NCBI RefSeq assembly: GCF_054482525.1
Contig: NZ_JBTHVG010000003.1
DNA length: 64,000 nt
Direction: 5' to 3' (one strand)
Source of the DNA: a plasmid
Of this stretch, positions 21,001 through 27,000 are shown one piece after another. Within the stretch, counting starts at the first letter, position 1. Each line of letters begins with the position of its first letter. Made by a program: the position numbers.

Positions 21001-24000
21001 ATAGACAAAGCCCGGCTTACCGGGCATTCATTTAATTAGATGCTAGAAATCTGACCCGTCGTCTGACTTTTATTCCAGGCAGAGTTAGGAACTAATAATG
21101 ATGGCCTGGTCAGTTTGAGGAAGCCGGTTTCCTCTGATAAATGCAGGGTGGTTTAAACGAGAAGAAGAAATGGTCATCGCCAGAAATGTCTCTTCACGCG
21201 AACGCAGAAATTCCCCCCATGAATAGGTTTCCCATACGTCGTGAGAAAGGTCGGATTCCTTTATGTACCGGGATTGCATTGTTGGCTCAAAATCGACAGG
21301 GGCTAAACTGTCATAGGATGGATGAACACGGTACCCCAATCCCTCCTCCGTCTGATGGTATGCATGTGCCAAAAGGACATCGTGGGAGACCAGGTCATAG
21401 TCGTTGTCCTGAACGAGCGTTTTTACGGTATGACTAATTTCCCCAAAGCCGTCTATTTCCCAGAGCGTTATCATTGTGAACTCAGCTAAAGTTCGTGGGC
21501 TCTTTACCAGAAAGCCATTTAATGCTCGTCGCCCCTTCAGCATGCCAACGTGGTAGGTCTTGTTGGGATAGGGTTTCATTGCCACCAGCGAATCAGCTTT
21601 AAGCTCAAGTGACAATTCAGGGACAGACACGGACATGAGAGTACACTTGTTTTTCATATGGTGAAGAATACGTGGCACAAGATGCAGATACATCATTTTC
21701 TCCTTTTATGGATATAACTGGCAGATCCTCAGCAGCATCAAAATAGTTAATAGACTTTTTTAATTGGTTAACCACTGTTGATTGACTTGTTTTATGTCTC
21801 TGAGAAATTATTCGTTTTGTTTCTGTTCGTTATACTGCTCAAACCAGAAGACGACCGGTTTTACTACAATATGAAGCAAACCAAAACGTTCTGCGGTACG
21901 GAAATTCACGCTATATGCGCGAGCCCGTTCAACCTGTTTGGTAATTTCATTTCTCATTCCTTCAACACTAAAAGCTCCTTTAAAAAGGTTGCAGGGAGCG
22001 CATGATGGAAATAAGTTTTCTATTGCATGCAGTTCAGGGTGCATAACCTTACCCGTACTTCGGGCAACATGAGTTACGCCGCTGCCGACCGGGGCTCTCA
22101 CCAGTTCAAAGTCGCGTCGAACAGGCTCAACATGATCGGCATGCCACCCTTTTTCAGGAAGCTTGCAACCACAATAGGCACAACGCCCCCCAAATTTCAT
22201 TCGCAGCTCAGCTCGCTGTATTTTAGAGATCTTATTTTTAGGTTTTGAGAACCTACCATCAGGTGATTCCGCTTTGGATAACTTTGCTGAGGGCTCAGGT
22301 AACTCAACTAAATTCCCGTTGATATTTATCACCTTGACCATATCATTTTCCGCCTTTACTAATCTCACGGGCACAGGAGCTGGCTTAAGTAACCGCTGAA
22401 GTTAACAGCCACTGACTGCCTCTACCCAGACCTTCTGTTTATACTCAATAGGCCACCCCTCTTTATCTGCCCGGATGACGCAATCATTTACCGTGGTGCG
22501 TGACCGGATACGAACATCAAGCGGAAGCGAATCGTTATCCACACGAGCCTGTGCCTCATTTAAAATGCGTAAAAACATCTCTTTGGTCATTCAGATACCC
22601 CCTCAACTTTGCGAATTTTGATCAGATGAGGGCGATTCAGTTTACAAAGTTGTTCTGTCGCTTCATCAATCGAATTGAACCGATGAGCCTCTTCGATATT
22701 TAAAGTCCAGTATTTCGCTTTCCCTTCTCCCAGATCGGACTCAAAATAATTTCGCTTTACATCCATTTTTTTAGGCCTGCCATTTATCTTGACGACATTA
22801 TGTCTGTCATCAAAAAGAAATTCGTCCCCCTCAAAAGTGATTAATACAAATGGCCCCTCAGGCTTGGAAGTCCGGGGACTTCCCATTTTCAAAGTCATAC
22901 TTCAGCCTCTCGATAGAACTCATGAAACCTCAAATTAAAATGGACTCACACCACACTGATTCAGTATTCCTCCTGAACCCCATTAGGCTCTGTTGTGATT
23001 TCATATTTAATACCGCCAGGTGCTCCCACAGCGTCCGCGACCGACTCACACAGCAGCGAGAGATCGTTGAGGGTCATTGGGTGTTCAATGTCCAGCGTGA
23101 AGAGTTTCCCGGCTTGCTTGGCGGCTGTCTTGTCAGCATGTTCAGCATTAAAAAGGTATACGGTGTGTTTTTCCTGAGCGGGGGTATTTTGATTTTGCAT
23201 TGATGATCCTTTTGTTTAGTTCCCCGATTCCGGGGGTGAGTGAATTAATTTAAATTTATATTTGTCTGGTTTAATTAGAACGTTTCCAGGCTATGCGTAA
23301 ACAGGTAATGCAAAGGCTGTATCAACAGGATTAAAGTTACTTTTCTGGATGCAGCAACGCTTGGACATGATGTCCACATTACATCACGATCAAAGCTAAG
23401 TTTTTTTTGTATAACCCCTTCATTTTCGTGTGTTTCGCGTTTCAGACGCTTATACGACCTGCCTGACCATCCTCATCAGAAGGCGGTTTAACAGTCCTTT
23501 CGCTGTCGGGCGATTGCTATCGACATAGTAAAAACCTGTTTTGGTCGTACCGTGAGCACTGCTCAGCACCCTCAGTTCCCAGATAACGTCACGGATAACG
23601 CCGCCATTTTCTGGCTTAAGGCATTCAGATAAATGGCGCATGAAACGAGCTCTTACGGCACGGTAATAGCGGAACTCCTCTGGCTGGTTAGTATTTTCTT
23701 TCACCCGGAGTCGCTGGTTACACAGAGTTAGAACTGCATCCATCATTCCCGCCTTCAGCTTCGCCTGGATCGCACCTTGTTGCTGTTCCCTCTCACCTTC
23801 GAGTAACGTTAAGATTCTTTCTCCGAGTGCCGTCTTGTTGTGTACGTGCAACTGTACACAGGCAGCTACGCATGCCCAGAATCTGAACTTTTTTATCTGT
23901 CCACGCAATTTCCGGGCTACAACCTGACGGTATGCAGTATCGCTGAGTATTTTAAAACGCCGACTGGCAACCAGCTCTGGAAGCGACACTCTTTCGCCTA

Positions 24001-27000
24001 TCCCCAGGCGGGAAAAGGTTTGTCCCCGTTGTGCGAGACGATGATAGACAGCGCCCTTCCCTTTTGAAATTCGGACCGCGCCATAACGAAGAAGATACTG
24101 AGCAGCAGTCGTTGGAGTAAACTCACCGTCAGCGATGCTCTGGCGTAACCCGTCGTATTCATGCCAGATAATCCAGGACGCCGTATCTTCTTCAACAGTC
24201 AGCTCATCCTCTTCCTCGAATGCCACGACGACAGAACTGCTCTCTCCGGTCTTTAGGCTACGTGAAGCCCTGGGGTCAGCCTGCCCGTCAAAATAGGTCA
24301 TCAGCGGCAACGTATCAGTCAGTCCATCATAAGCTGTACCGAACCGGCCTCCGGGCAGTTTCATCCAGAGTGGAGCTGGCATTGGTGTACGGGCCACAGG
24401 CAGCATGTCAGGCTCATCCTCAAGAAGGTCCAGATCGGCCTCTTCCCAGACTCTGCGATAGATCTCAATTGCCCGAAACGGGCGAGGGTTGAAACAGTGC
24501 AACGACCAGAGGAAATCAACGTGGATCACGTTTGCTTCATGTACAAGCCGAAATTGTGGCTCAGCCATACGACGGTTATAAGCCGTATCGTCCACCTCGC
24601 CGGAAAGTAGCTTTCTGCGATGCTTTGCCGCACGTCTGGCTTCAACATAATCAAGGCTGCAACAGACATGAAAAAGACGTTCAGTCAGGGACGAAGAAAA
24701 GATATTGGGTTGAAGACGCACATACCCGCCTTCGAACACTTTACGACCGATATAATCCCGCAGGCTCCAGTCGTACTGGATCTTAGAAAGAAATCGCTGA
24801 AGACGACTTAGGCCTGCCTGATAACCATATTTCTCAGGGTCAGTGCGAAGGAGCGTTTCCATTGAATGGTCAACCCCTACGGCTGTGCAAAGCGAGCACC
24901 CATATCTAGCCCCACAAGCTGAGGTTCGCGTGGGTTTCTCCGGCGACCAGATACACTCTCCGGTGGCGTCTTTATAAAGCGTTGCCAGGCTGAAGTTATC
25001 CGGCATAAAGCTTGGTAAAGGGAAGCGGGATTCGGAACCACAGGCCATTAGAAAAGACCAGATGTCCTGAGTGCGCCACTCCTTTACTGGATAGAGTTCA
25101 CCACCGTGCTCAGTCAGGGTTACTTTCCTCGCCTGCCCTCCCATTTTGAGGATATTTCCGGCCCTTCGGGCACTTTCATCATCCCTGGAGCCCAGCATCA
25201 GGCATACCCTGCTTCGTACGGATGCCGGGGCGTTTTTTAGATAACGAGCTTTGGCCTTGCGCAGGGGGGCGATTTTGTAGTCGGTTGAGCACTGACGGGT
25301 TGAAGAATTAGTCCAGGTCGGAAGTCCACGTCCAGTCAGAATGCGGCCTACCCAGCTCTGCGTAAGAGACGGTTGGGCGACAAGGACTGTGACCGGTAGC
25401 TGGTGTTCAGCAATGAACATTCTAAGCTGGTTGAGAACCTGTGAAGCCTGATAGTGCATCTCAGGGTTTTCGATCAGCGTATCGGACATCTGAATGAAAT
25501 GATGTTCGCTGATATTTGTGCCGTTACGTACTGCCCTGATCAATGCCATCAGAAATAGGTGAAGAAGAGAATGGGAGTCTTTACCGCCACTGTATCCCAC
25601 GCACATCGTCCATCCGTCCGTAATAGCCTGATAAATAGCAGATGTGGCTGACGTGACCAGAGAAGAAAGACTCACAGTCTCCTTTTCATCGGTATAGTTC
25701 AGATCGGCATCGGTTGTCAGGGTCTCCCAAACATCAGCCCATTTATCATGTTTCAAAATGGCAGCATTAGCCGCCTCAGGAAAAATAACTTCTGAGGGTA
25801 ATTCAAGGAATGAGTCACTTTTTTCAATAAACATATATTTTCCTGAACCACGGCATATGCTGCATCACTGATATTTTTATTAGAACTTTAAAATAACTAC
25901 AGCGCAACCATTTAGCGAAATTATATTAAATCAAAATCACGCAAATTTAATTCTTAAATAGATTTAAAATAAAAACCCATTGTAATTTAATCTCCCAGCA
26001 CAGCTATTAGATATAGGTTGGTGGTGTAATAAAAGCCGTGACATTTGTTTTCAACTCAGACAGCGGAATTGAAGGAGTGTTAAGAGTCATGTCATCACCA
26101 CAATGGCGTGGTAGAGCAGAAAGCTGAAATGAATCTTTCATCACCCTAATAACCGGGCATTCCGTACGTGCTGATGGCATTACTTCCCGCAGCATCGCTT
26201 CCTGCCTTGTGCTATCGCTATGCTTATATTCATCCTGGTCTGTTATTTCTTGAATTTCATCTTCACCACAAAATGACCAGTTAGCGTCATAGAAGTAAAA
26301 CTCAGTTAACTGAAGATCGTTTTTTTTCACGTATGTCGCCAATTTGCGGATACGCTGTTCAAGCATTGTATCTATCCGTAAGGAAACACTTTGCGGAACA
26401 TCACTTGCAAAGTCATTGATGCAAACAACGGTAGATACTATGAATTTATTGGTCATGGCAGGCTCCAGGCCACCGGGGGAACCGGTGGCTACGGTTATCA
26501 GGCAGGCTTATGCGCCGCAAAGGGTGTCAAGGGAAGGAAGAAGCTTGCTCAGCTTGTCGTAATCGAGCGGAGACAGTTCTGTAACGAGTTCGACCGAAAG
26601 ACTGGTGTTGTCTTCTTCACTCAGAATATAGATTCCGTCTTCTGGCTCTTTTCCGGCACATGCCTTCAGTCGTCTGTTAACGACCTCCTGGGCTGAATCC
26701 GCTACGTCGCAGCTCAGGACATAGCTTGCCACATAGCTGCTCTCACCGTGGTAATGCGTCACTTTACACAGAGCATACTGGATACCGGCTTTGTGAGCCT
26801 CATTCATGAGACGAGAAAACTGACAGCCATCCTGGTAATAGTGGGTATCCTTTGTGACCAGAATAGTCATACCCCCAAATTCATCTGTCCGGCTTTTACT
26901 GCATGTAAATGCAGCAGTAATTGTTACCATTTCCGGGAGGTCGAATACCGACAGCACGGCAGTTGTGAGGCAAATTGCATGGTCAAGATCAATAGTCTCT

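Follow-up and report, generated by a model that had tools for sequence, protein, structure and literature searches.

What does a PAPS-reductase-like PP-loop enzyme do on a plasmid when the Dnd or BREX partners usually encoded beside such enzymes are missing? The question is raised by a conserved yet unstudied gene, carried on major antibiotic-resistance plasmids, in the window studied here, a stretch of 64,000 nucleotides of IncHI2 plasmid backbone. A preliminary description had offered two answers, namely that the protein modifies plasmid DNA to pre-empt host defences, or that it forms a couple with a ParB-like protein in the style of IbrA/IbrB. Of this interpretation, the DndC-type enzyme, its stand-alone state and its company of methylases stood up, with a phage PAPS-Dam protein as precedent, while the IbrAB-style pairing did not. 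Our tentative answer, held with somewhat less than even confidence, is that the gene may encode a self-contained DNA sulfur-modifying enzyme with an accessory, anti-defence role similar to that of the orphan methylases nearby.

Gene and protein architecture

The ORF list and the translations agree with the preliminary description on a 794-aa reading frame with the motifs SGGKDS and CGARYGCSLC (Table 1). The gene product is RefSeq WP_000469466.1, annotated as a 'phosphoadenosine phosphosulfate reductase family protein', and because the gene is 100% identical to copies in IncHI2 plasmid records, the assumption of a plasmid origin proved correct. In the AF2 model (mean pLDDT 88.4) the 794 residues form one continuous multi-domain protein, with pLDDT values of 31-57 over aa 1-30 of the leader. 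Between IncHI1 and IncHI2, the leader (aa 1-55) has 71% identity and a dN/dS of 0.28. Strong purifying selection acts on the core, with dN/dS of 0.03-0.09 over aa 56-631 (0.034 in the catalytic domain and 0.04-0.09 in the module of aa 354-631), and the helical tail is fast-evolving.

Table 1. Positions of the gene and of the parts of its product in the window.
Feature	Position	Strand	Basis and remarks
Stand-alone DndC-like gene, complete	23450..25834	(-)	ORF list; 794 codons plus stop, ATG start
Acidic N-terminal leader, aa 1-55	25670..25834	(-)	pI 4.1; poorly conserved; low model confidence
DndC-type PP-loop ATP pyrophosphatase / PAPS-reductase-fold catalytic domain, aa 56-353	24776..25669	(-)	Profile and fold matches
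PP-loop SGGKDS, aa 82-87	25574..25591	(-)	Translation; ATP alpha-phosphate / adenylation motif
Cys182, equivalent of DndC Cys146	25289..25291	(-)	BLASTP and MAFFT alignments to Salmonella DndC
Cysteine cluster C294...C307-x5-C313-x2-C316	24887..24955	(-)	Translation and alignments; putative [4Fe-4S] ligands and DndC-specific dyad; segment CIWSPEKPTRTSACGARYGCSLC, with CGARYGCSLC at aa 307-316
Family-specific alpha/beta module, conserved, aa 354-631	23942..24775	(-)	Representative-sequence search, invariant residues, dN/dS
C-terminal tail, aa 632-794	23453..23941	(-)	Basic (pI 10.3), all-helical, fast-evolving

Kinship of the catalytic domain to DndC

Profile searches place the protein close to DndC. 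The Pfam family PAPS_reduct (PF01507) matches aa 78-264 above its cut-off (25.8 vs 22.5 bits), and profile-profile alignment with hhalign finds aa 54-353 homologous to DndC at E 1.8e-35. The DndC models of TIGR03183 (117.6 bits, E 6e-34) and PADLOC (E 4e-38) also match, but the scores stay below the curated cut-offs of the TIGR03183 equivalog (117.6 vs 290.4 bits) and of PRK06850 (129.9 vs 536 bits); identity to Salmonella DndC is 30%. BrxP is matched weakly in PADLOC (E 4.7e-6, aa 68-264 only), and DUF3440 gave no match in Pfam at E up to 1. Sulfate-assimilation and tRNA-thiolation enzymes, the kinship that the preliminary description had named as speaking against its proposal, were rejected: similarity to TtcA (E 1.6e-3), TilS (0.04) and CysD (0.12) is at the level of the PP-loop only, against E values of 6e-34 to 4e-38 for DndC.

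The likeness to DndC extends to individual residues. In BLASTP, MAFFT and hhalign alignments, C182, C294, C307, C313 and C316 align with DndC C146, C262, C273, C280 and C283, the five cysteines defined as forming a [4Fe-4S] cluster and a dyad (PMC10853773); the dyad is described in the literature as restricted to DndC and lacking in BrxP. All five are invariant in 62/62 homologues, down to 25% identity, as are S82, G84, K85, D86 and S87 of the PP-loop in the 62 sequences, and an R-(F/Y)-G-C-x-x-C motif is common to the plasmid protein and DndC. As judged from these alignments, the catalytic site is intact, with the predicted PP-loop ATP pyrophosphatase motif, the putative Fe-S cysteines and the DndC dyad all kept. 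The comparisons support a catalytic half of the DndC type, rather than one from sulfate assimilation or tRNA thiolation.

It is rather unlikely that the enzyme acts on a different substrate, thiolating or adenylating a DNA base, tRNA or another RNA, the nucleotide pool or a protein, with a benefit unrelated to PT-reading defences. Enzymes with a PP-loop and PAPS fold do serve many substrates, and Foldseek searches of the PDB returned the FAD synthase PAPS domain, CysH, TtuA, TtcA and LarE among the fold matches, all confined to the core, with query-normalised TM scores no higher than 0.21. The missed DndC thresholds also leave room for another substrate, as does a C-terminal half unlike anything known, from which substrate recognition is therefore unreadable. 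However, the five cysteines and the RFGCxxC motif go beyond the PP-loop and are the signature that defines DndC, whereas the RNA-thiolation families match through the PP-loop only, at E >1e-3. The genomic company of the gene, moreover, consists of DNA methylases, nucleases and ParB-like proteins and not of RNA or metabolic genes.

The C-terminal half

The preliminary description could not assign the C-terminal half of the protein, and neither could we. Comparisons with Pfam and NCBIfam families, with PADLOC models and with PDB and viral folds gave no specific assignment for aa 354-794, and PDB sequence and fold searches recognised neither a DNA-binding nor an NTPase fold there. Pfam itself has no match past aa 264, and this half is therefore truly unassignable by Pfam, NCBIfam and PADLOC profiles and by PDB sequences and folds.

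Its first part, the module of aa 354-631, has 142 matches among 1.84e9 representative sequences. In proteins of 570-900 aa these fall at about positions 330-460, the remaining matches being short fragments, so the module occurs only fused behind the catalytic domain. Residues R359, D395, E398, F428, W443, A455, G585 and R603 are invariant in the 62 homologues. The PADLOC model PDLC02661 (DndC) aligns to aa 63-474, and aa 354-474 are thus common to one DndC model. The tail of aa 632-794 is found only in the long forms of the IncHI/IncC type and is missing from relatives of ~600 aa.

PT synthesis by the dnd, ssp and brx systems requires an NTPase beside the PAPS-domain protein, and gut isolates with a PAPS reductase and no cognate NTPase have no PT. 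This requirement lends some weight to a host-dependent role, which we regard as quite unlikely, in which the protein would replace or supplement DndC by docking on the recipient's DndD/DndE or SspB/C, would speed PT modification of the incoming plasmid at the host motif before DndFGH attacks, and would be inert in cells without Dnd. In its favour are the likeness of the catalytic domain to DndC and a variable tail that could dock on a partner and evolve with host systems. Enterobacterial DndC proteins from Salmonella, Klebsiella, Enterobacter and Citrobacter, moreover, share at least 83% identity, which would offer one common target machinery. Yet past aa 353 the protein has no profile similarity to the region of enterobacterial DndC expected to touch DndD/E, and strong purifying selection maintains it on plasmids that live mostly in hosts without dnd (about 3-4% of genomes carry dndCD). 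Such a role would also need early expression in the recipient, from a gene that lies 31-34 kb from mobI/oriT.

Distribution and dispensability

The gene is found in about 990 plasmid records and in 4.6% of complete E. coli genomes, with relatives on IncHI1, IncC and other large plasmids. By tblastn the family occurs in 2,659 plasmid records, of which 2,063 are conjugative, and in essentially no phages. About one in three IncHI2 records has a disrupted copy, so the gene is dispensable. Large conjugative plasmids and integrated elements carry it as a non-essential accessory; it is restricted to mobile elements and always alone. A literature search found no report of DNA modification or of a phenotype for the plasmid protein.

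Conservation of the active site also bears on a non-catalytic decoy or inhibitor, a very unlikely role in which the protein would sequester IscS or part of the host's Dnd/Ssp restriction machinery and leave DNA unmodified. Many anti-defence proteins originate from defence components, and the anti-Dnd effect of the phage PAPS-Dam protein is known without an established mechanism. A decoy has no need of catalysis, yet the PP-loop, the five cysteines and many other active-site residues are invariant across 62 sequences at 25-30% identity, and the dN/dS of the catalytic domain also speaks against it. Blocking PT writing in a DndFGH+ cell would, in addition, probably poison the new host.

Neighbourhood and transfer context

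The absence of the usual partners, as the preliminary description had it, was borne out at each scale of the search. A PADLOC scan of ten neighbouring proteins and the RefSeq annotation of pSTM6-275, covering about 120 kb around the gene, revealed no Dnd or BREX partner, and the flanks of 58 homologous loci contain neither DndA/B/D/E nor any other conserved neighbour; at the positive-control locus (L058) the dndBCDE operon was seen as expected. The stand-alone state thus holds across the whole family, in plasmids or integrated elements where the surroundings are long runs of small genes that lack annotation. Orphan DNA methyltransferases, which the preliminary description had placed around the gene, lie near it in IncHI2 and also in IncC, where the homologue is three genes after dcm2. 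In phage phiC725A, too, a related solo gene sits among orphan DNA methylases.

The gene is one of about 45 co-directional genes, all read toward oriT, and its distance from mobI/oriT corresponds to about 40 ORFs on the relaxase side, whichever way MOBH transfer runs. Leading regions have been defined as the first ~30 ORFs to enter the recipient, with the strand transcribed from the T-strand (Samuel et al., 2024). The supplement of that study lists a PAPS-reductase family, no. 645, as enriched in leading regions, a family that may or may not be that of the plasmid protein. The available part of the report on an IncC screen for restriction escape in V. cholerae highlights vcrx089/090 and does not mention the DndC-like gene.

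Two further explanations draw on the neighbours. The first, highly improbable in our estimation, is a plasmid-borne defence in which the enzyme marks plasmid and host DNA and a plasmid nuclease, for instance an HNH protein, attacks unmarked invaders, a cryptic PT-based restriction-modification system. An HNH endonuclease is indeed encoded four genes downstream (21808-22374), is kept in IncHI1 and IncHI2, and has weak PADLOC matches to PtuB and HNH models; a NERD nuclease is encoded in the window as well. However, the HNH gene is missing near the IncC, Burkholderia, Pseudomonas, Cupriavidus and chromosomal homologues, and many IncHI2 plasmids with a disrupted enzyme keep it, which would be lethal for a true restriction-modification pair. 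The second, with the slimmest chance of all, is an IbrA/IbrB- or YbdN/YbdM-style couple with one of the three ParB-HTH proteins that the preliminary description had rightly counted in the window (7205-8389, 58095-59258 and 62469-63524), for which one can cite the recurrence of PAPS-fold and ParB pairs (adjacent ybdN-ybdM in E. coli, DndB in Dnd) and a ParB-family gene about 4 kb from the Burkholderia homologue, but against which stand the absence of any ParB-like gene <15 kb away, of a conserved ParB-like cluster outside the IncHI lineage and of DUF3440, with an alignment to YbdN over the bare PAPS core only.

A possible self-contained route to a sulfur mark

If the plasmid protein can modify DNA with sulfur unaided by other plasmid proteins, IscS, the cysteine desulfurase of the host, would pass persulfide sulfur to it, the enzyme would adenylate a DNA backbone phosphate with ATP, and sulfur would replace a non-bridging oxygen, giving a phosphorothioate (PT) or a sulfur mark much like it. 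A targeting role may fall to the C-terminal module, which would provide the DNA engagement that otherwise comes from DndD/DndE, SspB/SspC or BrxC. Plasmid DNA would be marked in the donor or soon after entry, and the marked plasmid would pass as 'self' to PT-reading defences (DndFGH, Pbe, SspE/FGH-type), in parallel with the action of orphan methylases against restriction-modification.

The homology to DndC, the invariant cysteines and PP-loop, the purifying selection and the solo loci are consistent with such an enzyme, and we also count in its favour the plasmid and conjugative spread, the company of methylases, the leading-region listing and the AF2 model. By analogy, the phage PAPS-Dam fusion that acts against Dnd and the single-gene TdpC lend it supporting precedent. 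Counted against it are the missed DndC cut-off, the need for an NTPase elsewhere, the NTPase-less gut isolates without PT, the absence of a recognised DNA-binding or NTPase fold and of a published phenotype, the silence of the V. cholerae screen in the part available, the frequent disruption in IncHI2 and the distance to mobI/oriT.

Comparison with known systems

Of the PAPS-fold proteins compared, YbdN (PAPS plus DUF3440), which we take to be the IbrA-type protein of K-12, shares the PAPS core and PP-loop with the plasmid protein (hhalign E 9.8e-10, aa 60-276). It lacks all five cysteines, and the plasmid protein in turn lacks DUF3440 and an adjacent ParB-like gene. BrxP of BREX type 4 and SspD of SspABCD are likewise PP-loop proteins of the PAPS-reductase fold that write PT on DNA, and both require an NTPase partner (BrxC or SspC). 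BrxP carries DUF4007, lacks the DndC dyad and is encoded with brxC, brxZ and brxL; membership of BrxP was rejected, as the plasmid protein has no DUF4007, no brx genes nearby and only the weak match. No SspD model was matched in PADLOC.

DndC itself (DptC; TIGR03183), a PP-loop/[4Fe-4S] sulfurtransferase that introduces sulfur into the DNA backbone in DndABCDE phosphorothioation, is the closest in its catalytic part, sharing SGGKDS, the five cysteines, R-F/Y-G-C-x-x-C and homology over aa 54-353. In a typical dnd operon dndC stands with the genes for DndD, an SMC-like ABC ATPase, and DndE, usually also DndB and DndA, whereas the plasmid protein has none of DndA/B/D/E as neighbours at the 58 loci. 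DndC lies in defence islands and the plasmid family on plasmids and integrated elements. Past aa 353 the plasmid protein is unrelated to the C-terminus of enterobacterial DndC, over a region 250-440 aa long.

Two systems offer functional precedents. TdpC of TdpABC (An et al., Nat Chem Biol 2025, as cited in PMC12914056) is, by the description available, the sole reported case of PT synthesis by a single gene; as it suffices alone, it would be a precedent for a stand-alone PT writer. The comparison is one of descriptions, no chain named TdpC having been seen in PDB searches with the plasmid protein, and TdpC differs in working with TdpAB restriction partners in thermophiles. The phage PAPS-reductase-Dam fusion (p0018 of Vibrio crassostreae podophage 44E38.1) overcomes Dnd experimentally (Piel et al., 2022), and the PADLOC model of this type, PDLC03333, matches aa 65-334 at E 7.5e-23. 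The partner in the phage protein, 479 aa in total, is a recognisable Dam methylase, whereas that in the plasmid protein is an unassignable 440 aa; both proteins combine a DndC-like PAPS domain, carried by a mobile element without Dnd partners, with a second fused module.

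A DndC-like gene on conjugative plasmids

The 794-codon open reading frame of the preliminary description was recovered in the ORF listing with its ATG start, and its product carries the RefSeq name 'phosphoadenosine phosphosulfate reductase family protein' (WP_000469466.1). The DNA of the window is backbone of an IncHI2 plasmid, and hundreds of IncHI2A / MOBH / MPF_F plasmids from E. coli, Salmonella, Enterobacter, and Klebsiella carry the gene at 100% identity; 991 plasmid records match it. The exact allele is present in 248 of 5,426 complete E. coli genomes (4.6%), nearly always plasmid-borne. 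By tblastn, the family was found in 2,659 PLSDB plasmid records, 2,063 of them conjugative, with identities to the target of 95-100% in IncHI2, 75% in IncHI1, 47% in IncC, and 23-30% in Burkholderia, Cupriavidus, and Pseudomonas plasmids; other plasmids were also matched. Essentially no phage carried the family in the tblastn search, and 'phage' matches such as MT838064 and similar were rejected as solo genes, being ordinary dndC-dndD pairs. Scans for promoters and terminators around the gene returned matches at chance level only.

The gene is dispensable. In IncHI2 plasmids of the Enterobacter/Klebsiella/Citrobacter type, it is split near codon 312 (window ~24900) by inserted DNA that encodes a 1,091-aa P-loop NTPase and an HTH regulator (comparison locus L063, NZ_AP025811.1, 1077-6452); the last 470 aa remain there, annotated as a 'hypothetical protein'. 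Of the 991 records, 660 cover at least 80% of the gene; coverage is below 80% in about one third of IncHI2 records, and degraded copies occur elsewhere as well.

Features of the 794-aa protein, its gene, and other genes in the window
Feature	Residues or length	Window position	Strand	Source or setting
DndC-like gene	794 aa	23450..25834	-	ORF listing
Acidic leader, disordered	aa 1-55			AlphaFold2 model
PAPS fold	about aa 56-353			AlphaFold2 model
Mixed alpha/beta module	aa 354-631			AlphaFold2 model
Long helices, four to six	aa 632-794	23453-23941		AlphaFold2 model
SGGKDS PP-loop	aa 82-87	25574-25591	-	translation
Cysteine-rich segment CIWSPEKPTRTSACGARYGCSLC	aa 294-316	24887-24955	-	translation
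Mrr_N+N6_N4 fusion methylase		29018-30268	-	within ~45-gene array
Weak MTase-like protein	206 aa	30437-31057		
Methyltransferase	274 aa	39005-39829		
DUF4942+N6_Mtase protein		56156-57847		
Dam-family enzyme		59607-60440		
DUF6012 protein		21085-21696		downstream of HNH gene
HNH endonuclease	188 aa	21808-22374		downstream of DndC-like gene, within ~45-gene array
ParB-HTH proteins, three	350-394 aa	7205-8389; 58095-59258; 62469-63524		
repHI2		47389-48477		
Proteins flanking repHI2, three	~800 aa	35272-37689; 41283-43703; 49585-52041		

The catalytic half and its cysteines

Pfam matched the protein with PAPS_reduct alone, at aa 78-264 (25.8 bits, cut-off 22.5), and the C-terminal half stays unassigned, as the preliminary description had it. 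The top two NCBIfam models were PRK06850 (1.2e-37) and TIGR03183 DndC (6.4e-34), DndC being the sulfur-inserting enzyme of the Dnd phosphorothioate (PT) system. Homology to sulfate-assimilation or tRNA-thiolation enzymes, which would have spoken against a role in DNA modification, was looked for, and TtcA (1.6e-3), TilS (0.04), and CysD (0.12) lay far behind. Among PADLOC models, DndC matched at 4e-38 and a PAPS-containing 'MTase_II' model at 7.5e-23, BrxP reached merely 4.7e-6, and SspD gave no match. The two leading NCBIfam scores lie below their curated cut-offs (129.9 against 536 bits for PRK06850 and 117.6 against 290.4 bits for TIGR03183), and the protein is outside the DndC equivalog because it falls short in both score and operon context.

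Against a bona fide DndC from the Salmonella dndBCDE locus L058, BLASTP gave 30% identity over aa 62-331, with C182, C294, C307, C313, and C316 aligned to DndC C146, C262, C273, C280, and C283, so that all DndC cysteines are matched; an R-(F/Y)-G-C-x-x-C motif is common to both proteins. The same five cysteines appear in a joint alignment with the IncC, Burkholderia-plasmid, and Pseudomonas-megaplasmid relatives, and in 62 homologues, down to ~25% identity, they are invariant together with the PP-loop and ~25 further positions. Profile-profile comparison of this 62-sequence family alignment with an alignment of DndC gave an E of 1.8e-35 between target 54-353 and DndC 25-317, and no similarity outside target 54-353. 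DndC is a PP-loop ATP pyrophosphatase with a [4Fe-4S] cluster on three cysteines and a distinct cysteine dyad (PMC10853773), and this dyad is reported to be missing from BrxP (PMC12839542). Taken with the five aligned cysteines, these reports identify the predicted catalytic signature as DndC-type, and not as CysH, tRNA-thiolase, IbrA, or BrxP-type. The protein works like DndC, as far as sequence can tell.

A C-terminal half confined to the family

AlphaFold2, supplied with the family alignment, gave a confident single-chain model (pLDDT 88.4, pTM 0.78). A phmmer search with aa 380-794 against 1.84e9 representatives returned 142 proteins, all of the target family, full-length or fragments; matches in proteins of 570-900 aa start at about position 330-460, and the remainder are short fragments of the same family. 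Occurrence of this half in other architectures was rejected on these 142 of 142 matches, and the C-terminal module therefore occurs fused behind a target-type catalytic domain only. Residues 354-474 may represent an ancestral DndC sub-domain, since a single PADLOC DndC model reaches as far as aa 474; the rest of the half is family-specific.

A comparison of the IncHI2 allele with the IncHI1 allele put dN/dS at 0.034 over aa 56-353, at 0.042 over aa 354-474, and at 0.086 over aa 475-631. The tail (aa 632-794) is basic in the target, with a pI of 10.3, and is missing from short relatives of ~600 aa. IncHI1 and IncHI2 tails share 53% of their residues, and identity to the IncC tail is 21%, compared with 87% and 56% for the catalytic domain. 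Such fast divergence would be the pattern expected of a specificity or host-interaction surface.

Genomic neighbourhood

We collected 58 loci of the family and clustered all flanking ORFs by all-vs-all BLASTP. No neighbour family was common across lineages in these loci, every cluster being lineage-restricted, and no DndA/B/D/E, SspB/C, or Brx gene was found in the flanks. A PADLOC scan of ten neighbours in the window likewise found no Dnd, Ssp, or Brx partner, which bears out the stand-alone state first read from the window. The usual setting is a long co-directional run of small genes that lack annotation, either plasmid-borne or within an integrated element. Neighbours in Cupriavidus and Ralstonia resemble, on a reading of their sequences, SbcC- and SbcD-type proteins and a tyrosine recombinase, which are generic mobile-element genes.

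The IncHI2 run consists of ~45 consecutive minus-strand backbone genes (window 2564-37689; examined together with 192.4-202.5 kb of pSTM6-275, L064), transcribed toward mobI, the MobH relaxase gene, and traD, which adjoin the window on its left. At the left edge, the mobI-relaxase-traD operon ends with the genes of an S49-family peptidase and a NERD nuclease-domain protein (window 363-2277). As oriT lies just upstream of mobI in MOBH elements (PMC4542580), the target gene would be 31-34 kb from the expected oriT, with the whole array reading toward it. It has the look of an array for plasmid establishment, or possibly one of leading type, depending on the polarity of MOBH transfer. In the supplement to Samuel et al. 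(Nature 2024), a PAPS-reductase family (no. 645, 73 members) stands under 'other unknown leading families', a candidate counterpart by family name.

At least four, possibly five, orphan DNA-methyltransferase-like genes lie in the window, where no cognate restriction gene was seen. The IncC homologue (WP_001187969) is found three genes downstream of dcm2. Pseudomonas phage phiC725A (L066, 3701-8011) has a solo DndC-like gene whose 476-aa product retains three of the five cysteines of DndC; genes for a C5-cytosine methylase and an adenine methylase follow it directly, making up a compact DNA-modification cassette.

Other genes of the window may be recorded here. The HNH endonuclease, with weak PADLOC PtuB and HNH matches, and the DUF6012 protein form a pair whose place downstream of the target is conserved only in IncHI1 and IncHI2. 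The three ParB-HTH proteins look paralogous, with HTH_ParB just above cut-off, and no parA is found beside their genes in the window. A matching plasmid record gives the three proteins flanking repHI2 as Ig-like-domain proteins, and toxin-antitoxin genes are also present in the wider window. A 93-aa ORF at ~16342-16623, labelled 'Brucella suis mprF, 100% identity' in the PLSDB annotation (rgi prediction) of the matching plasmid, is an apparent database artefact.

Possible functions

What is new here is a stand-alone, plasmid-borne enzyme of predicted DndC type with a novel C-terminal module. DndC residues under purifying selection, the missing Dnd partners, and confinement to mobile elements, together with the company of orphan methylases, the unique conserved module, and the fast-evolving basic tail, make it most economical to regard the protein as a self-contained DNA sulfur-modifying enzyme, most likely a PT writer, that serves plasmid anti-defence; we put this forward tentatively, as a serious possibility. 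Such an enzyme would take its sulfur from an IscS-derived persulfide and use ATP adenylation to write the phosphorothioate, with its C-terminal half standing in for the partners that engage DNA. The earlier proposal of DNA modification in anti-defence is supported in part: it is plausible and draws on the DndC-specific residues, and the alternative of a ParB partner offered beside it found no support.

More doubtful is a fully self-sufficient writer, a single polypeptide that would insert PT (or another DNA-sulfur mark) with no NTPase, its module targeting DNA and its tail setting specificity. No DNA-binding fold was recognised in the C-terminal half, which counts against a self-contained writer, as does the requirement of dnd, ssp, and brx for both a PAPS-domain protein and an NTPase in PT synthesis (PMC12914056). 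Gut isolates with a PAPS gene and without the cognate NTPase had no PT (PMC12914056).

Were the protein to act on another substrate, which we consider unlikely, a conserved 794-aa backbone protein with an intact DndC active site would still need explaining. It is less probable again that it boosts, and depends on, a Dnd system of the host. A non-catalytic decoy is disfavoured by the invariant active site and seems very improbable. There is an equally slight chance that the protein and the downstream HNH endonuclease form a cryptic PT-based defence, as the HNH gene is lineage-restricted and survives where the target gene is disrupted. Least probable is an IbrAB-like couple with a ParB protein, given that Pfam gave no DUF3440 match, that the family aligns with E. 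coli YbdN (PAPS + DUF3440), which we take as the IbrA-type protein of K-12, over aa 60-276 only, that YbdN has not one of the five DndC cysteines in the joint alignment, and that no neighbour is conserved across lineages.

A PAPS-Dam fusion lets a Vibrio phage escape the Dnd system of its host (Piel et al., preprint 10.1101/2021.05.05.442762), and an anti-defence role has been proposed for phage PAPS reductases under Aca regulation (PMC13551039). We found no studies of the plasmid protein in literature on its accessions, on IncHI2/IncC with PAPS reductase, or on orphan dndC on plasmids. The protein is widespread on clinically important plasmids, and IncHI2, IncHI1, and IncC are major carriers of mcr, carbapenemase, and ESBL genes. 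If it is a self-sufficient writer, the main multidrug-resistance plasmids (IncHI2, IncHI1, IncC, and the Pseudomonas/Burkholderia megaplasmids) would bear sulfur-marked DNA shielded from PT-reading immunity, and the enzyme would be to plasmids a counterpart of the orphan methylases, as well as a minimal PT system of a new kind. A sulfur mark, if the enzyme writes one, would give plasmid anti-defence an epigenetic layer other than methylation and help explain plasmid passage across Dnd/Ssp barriers.

The mechanism and site selection of PT chemistry by DndC are still disputed, and a second single-protein PT writer would be useful for dissecting them. In tdpABC, tdpC alone is enough for PT synthesis, as reported in PMC12914056 citing An et al. 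2025, which makes TdpC a functional precedent for a possible stand-alone writer.
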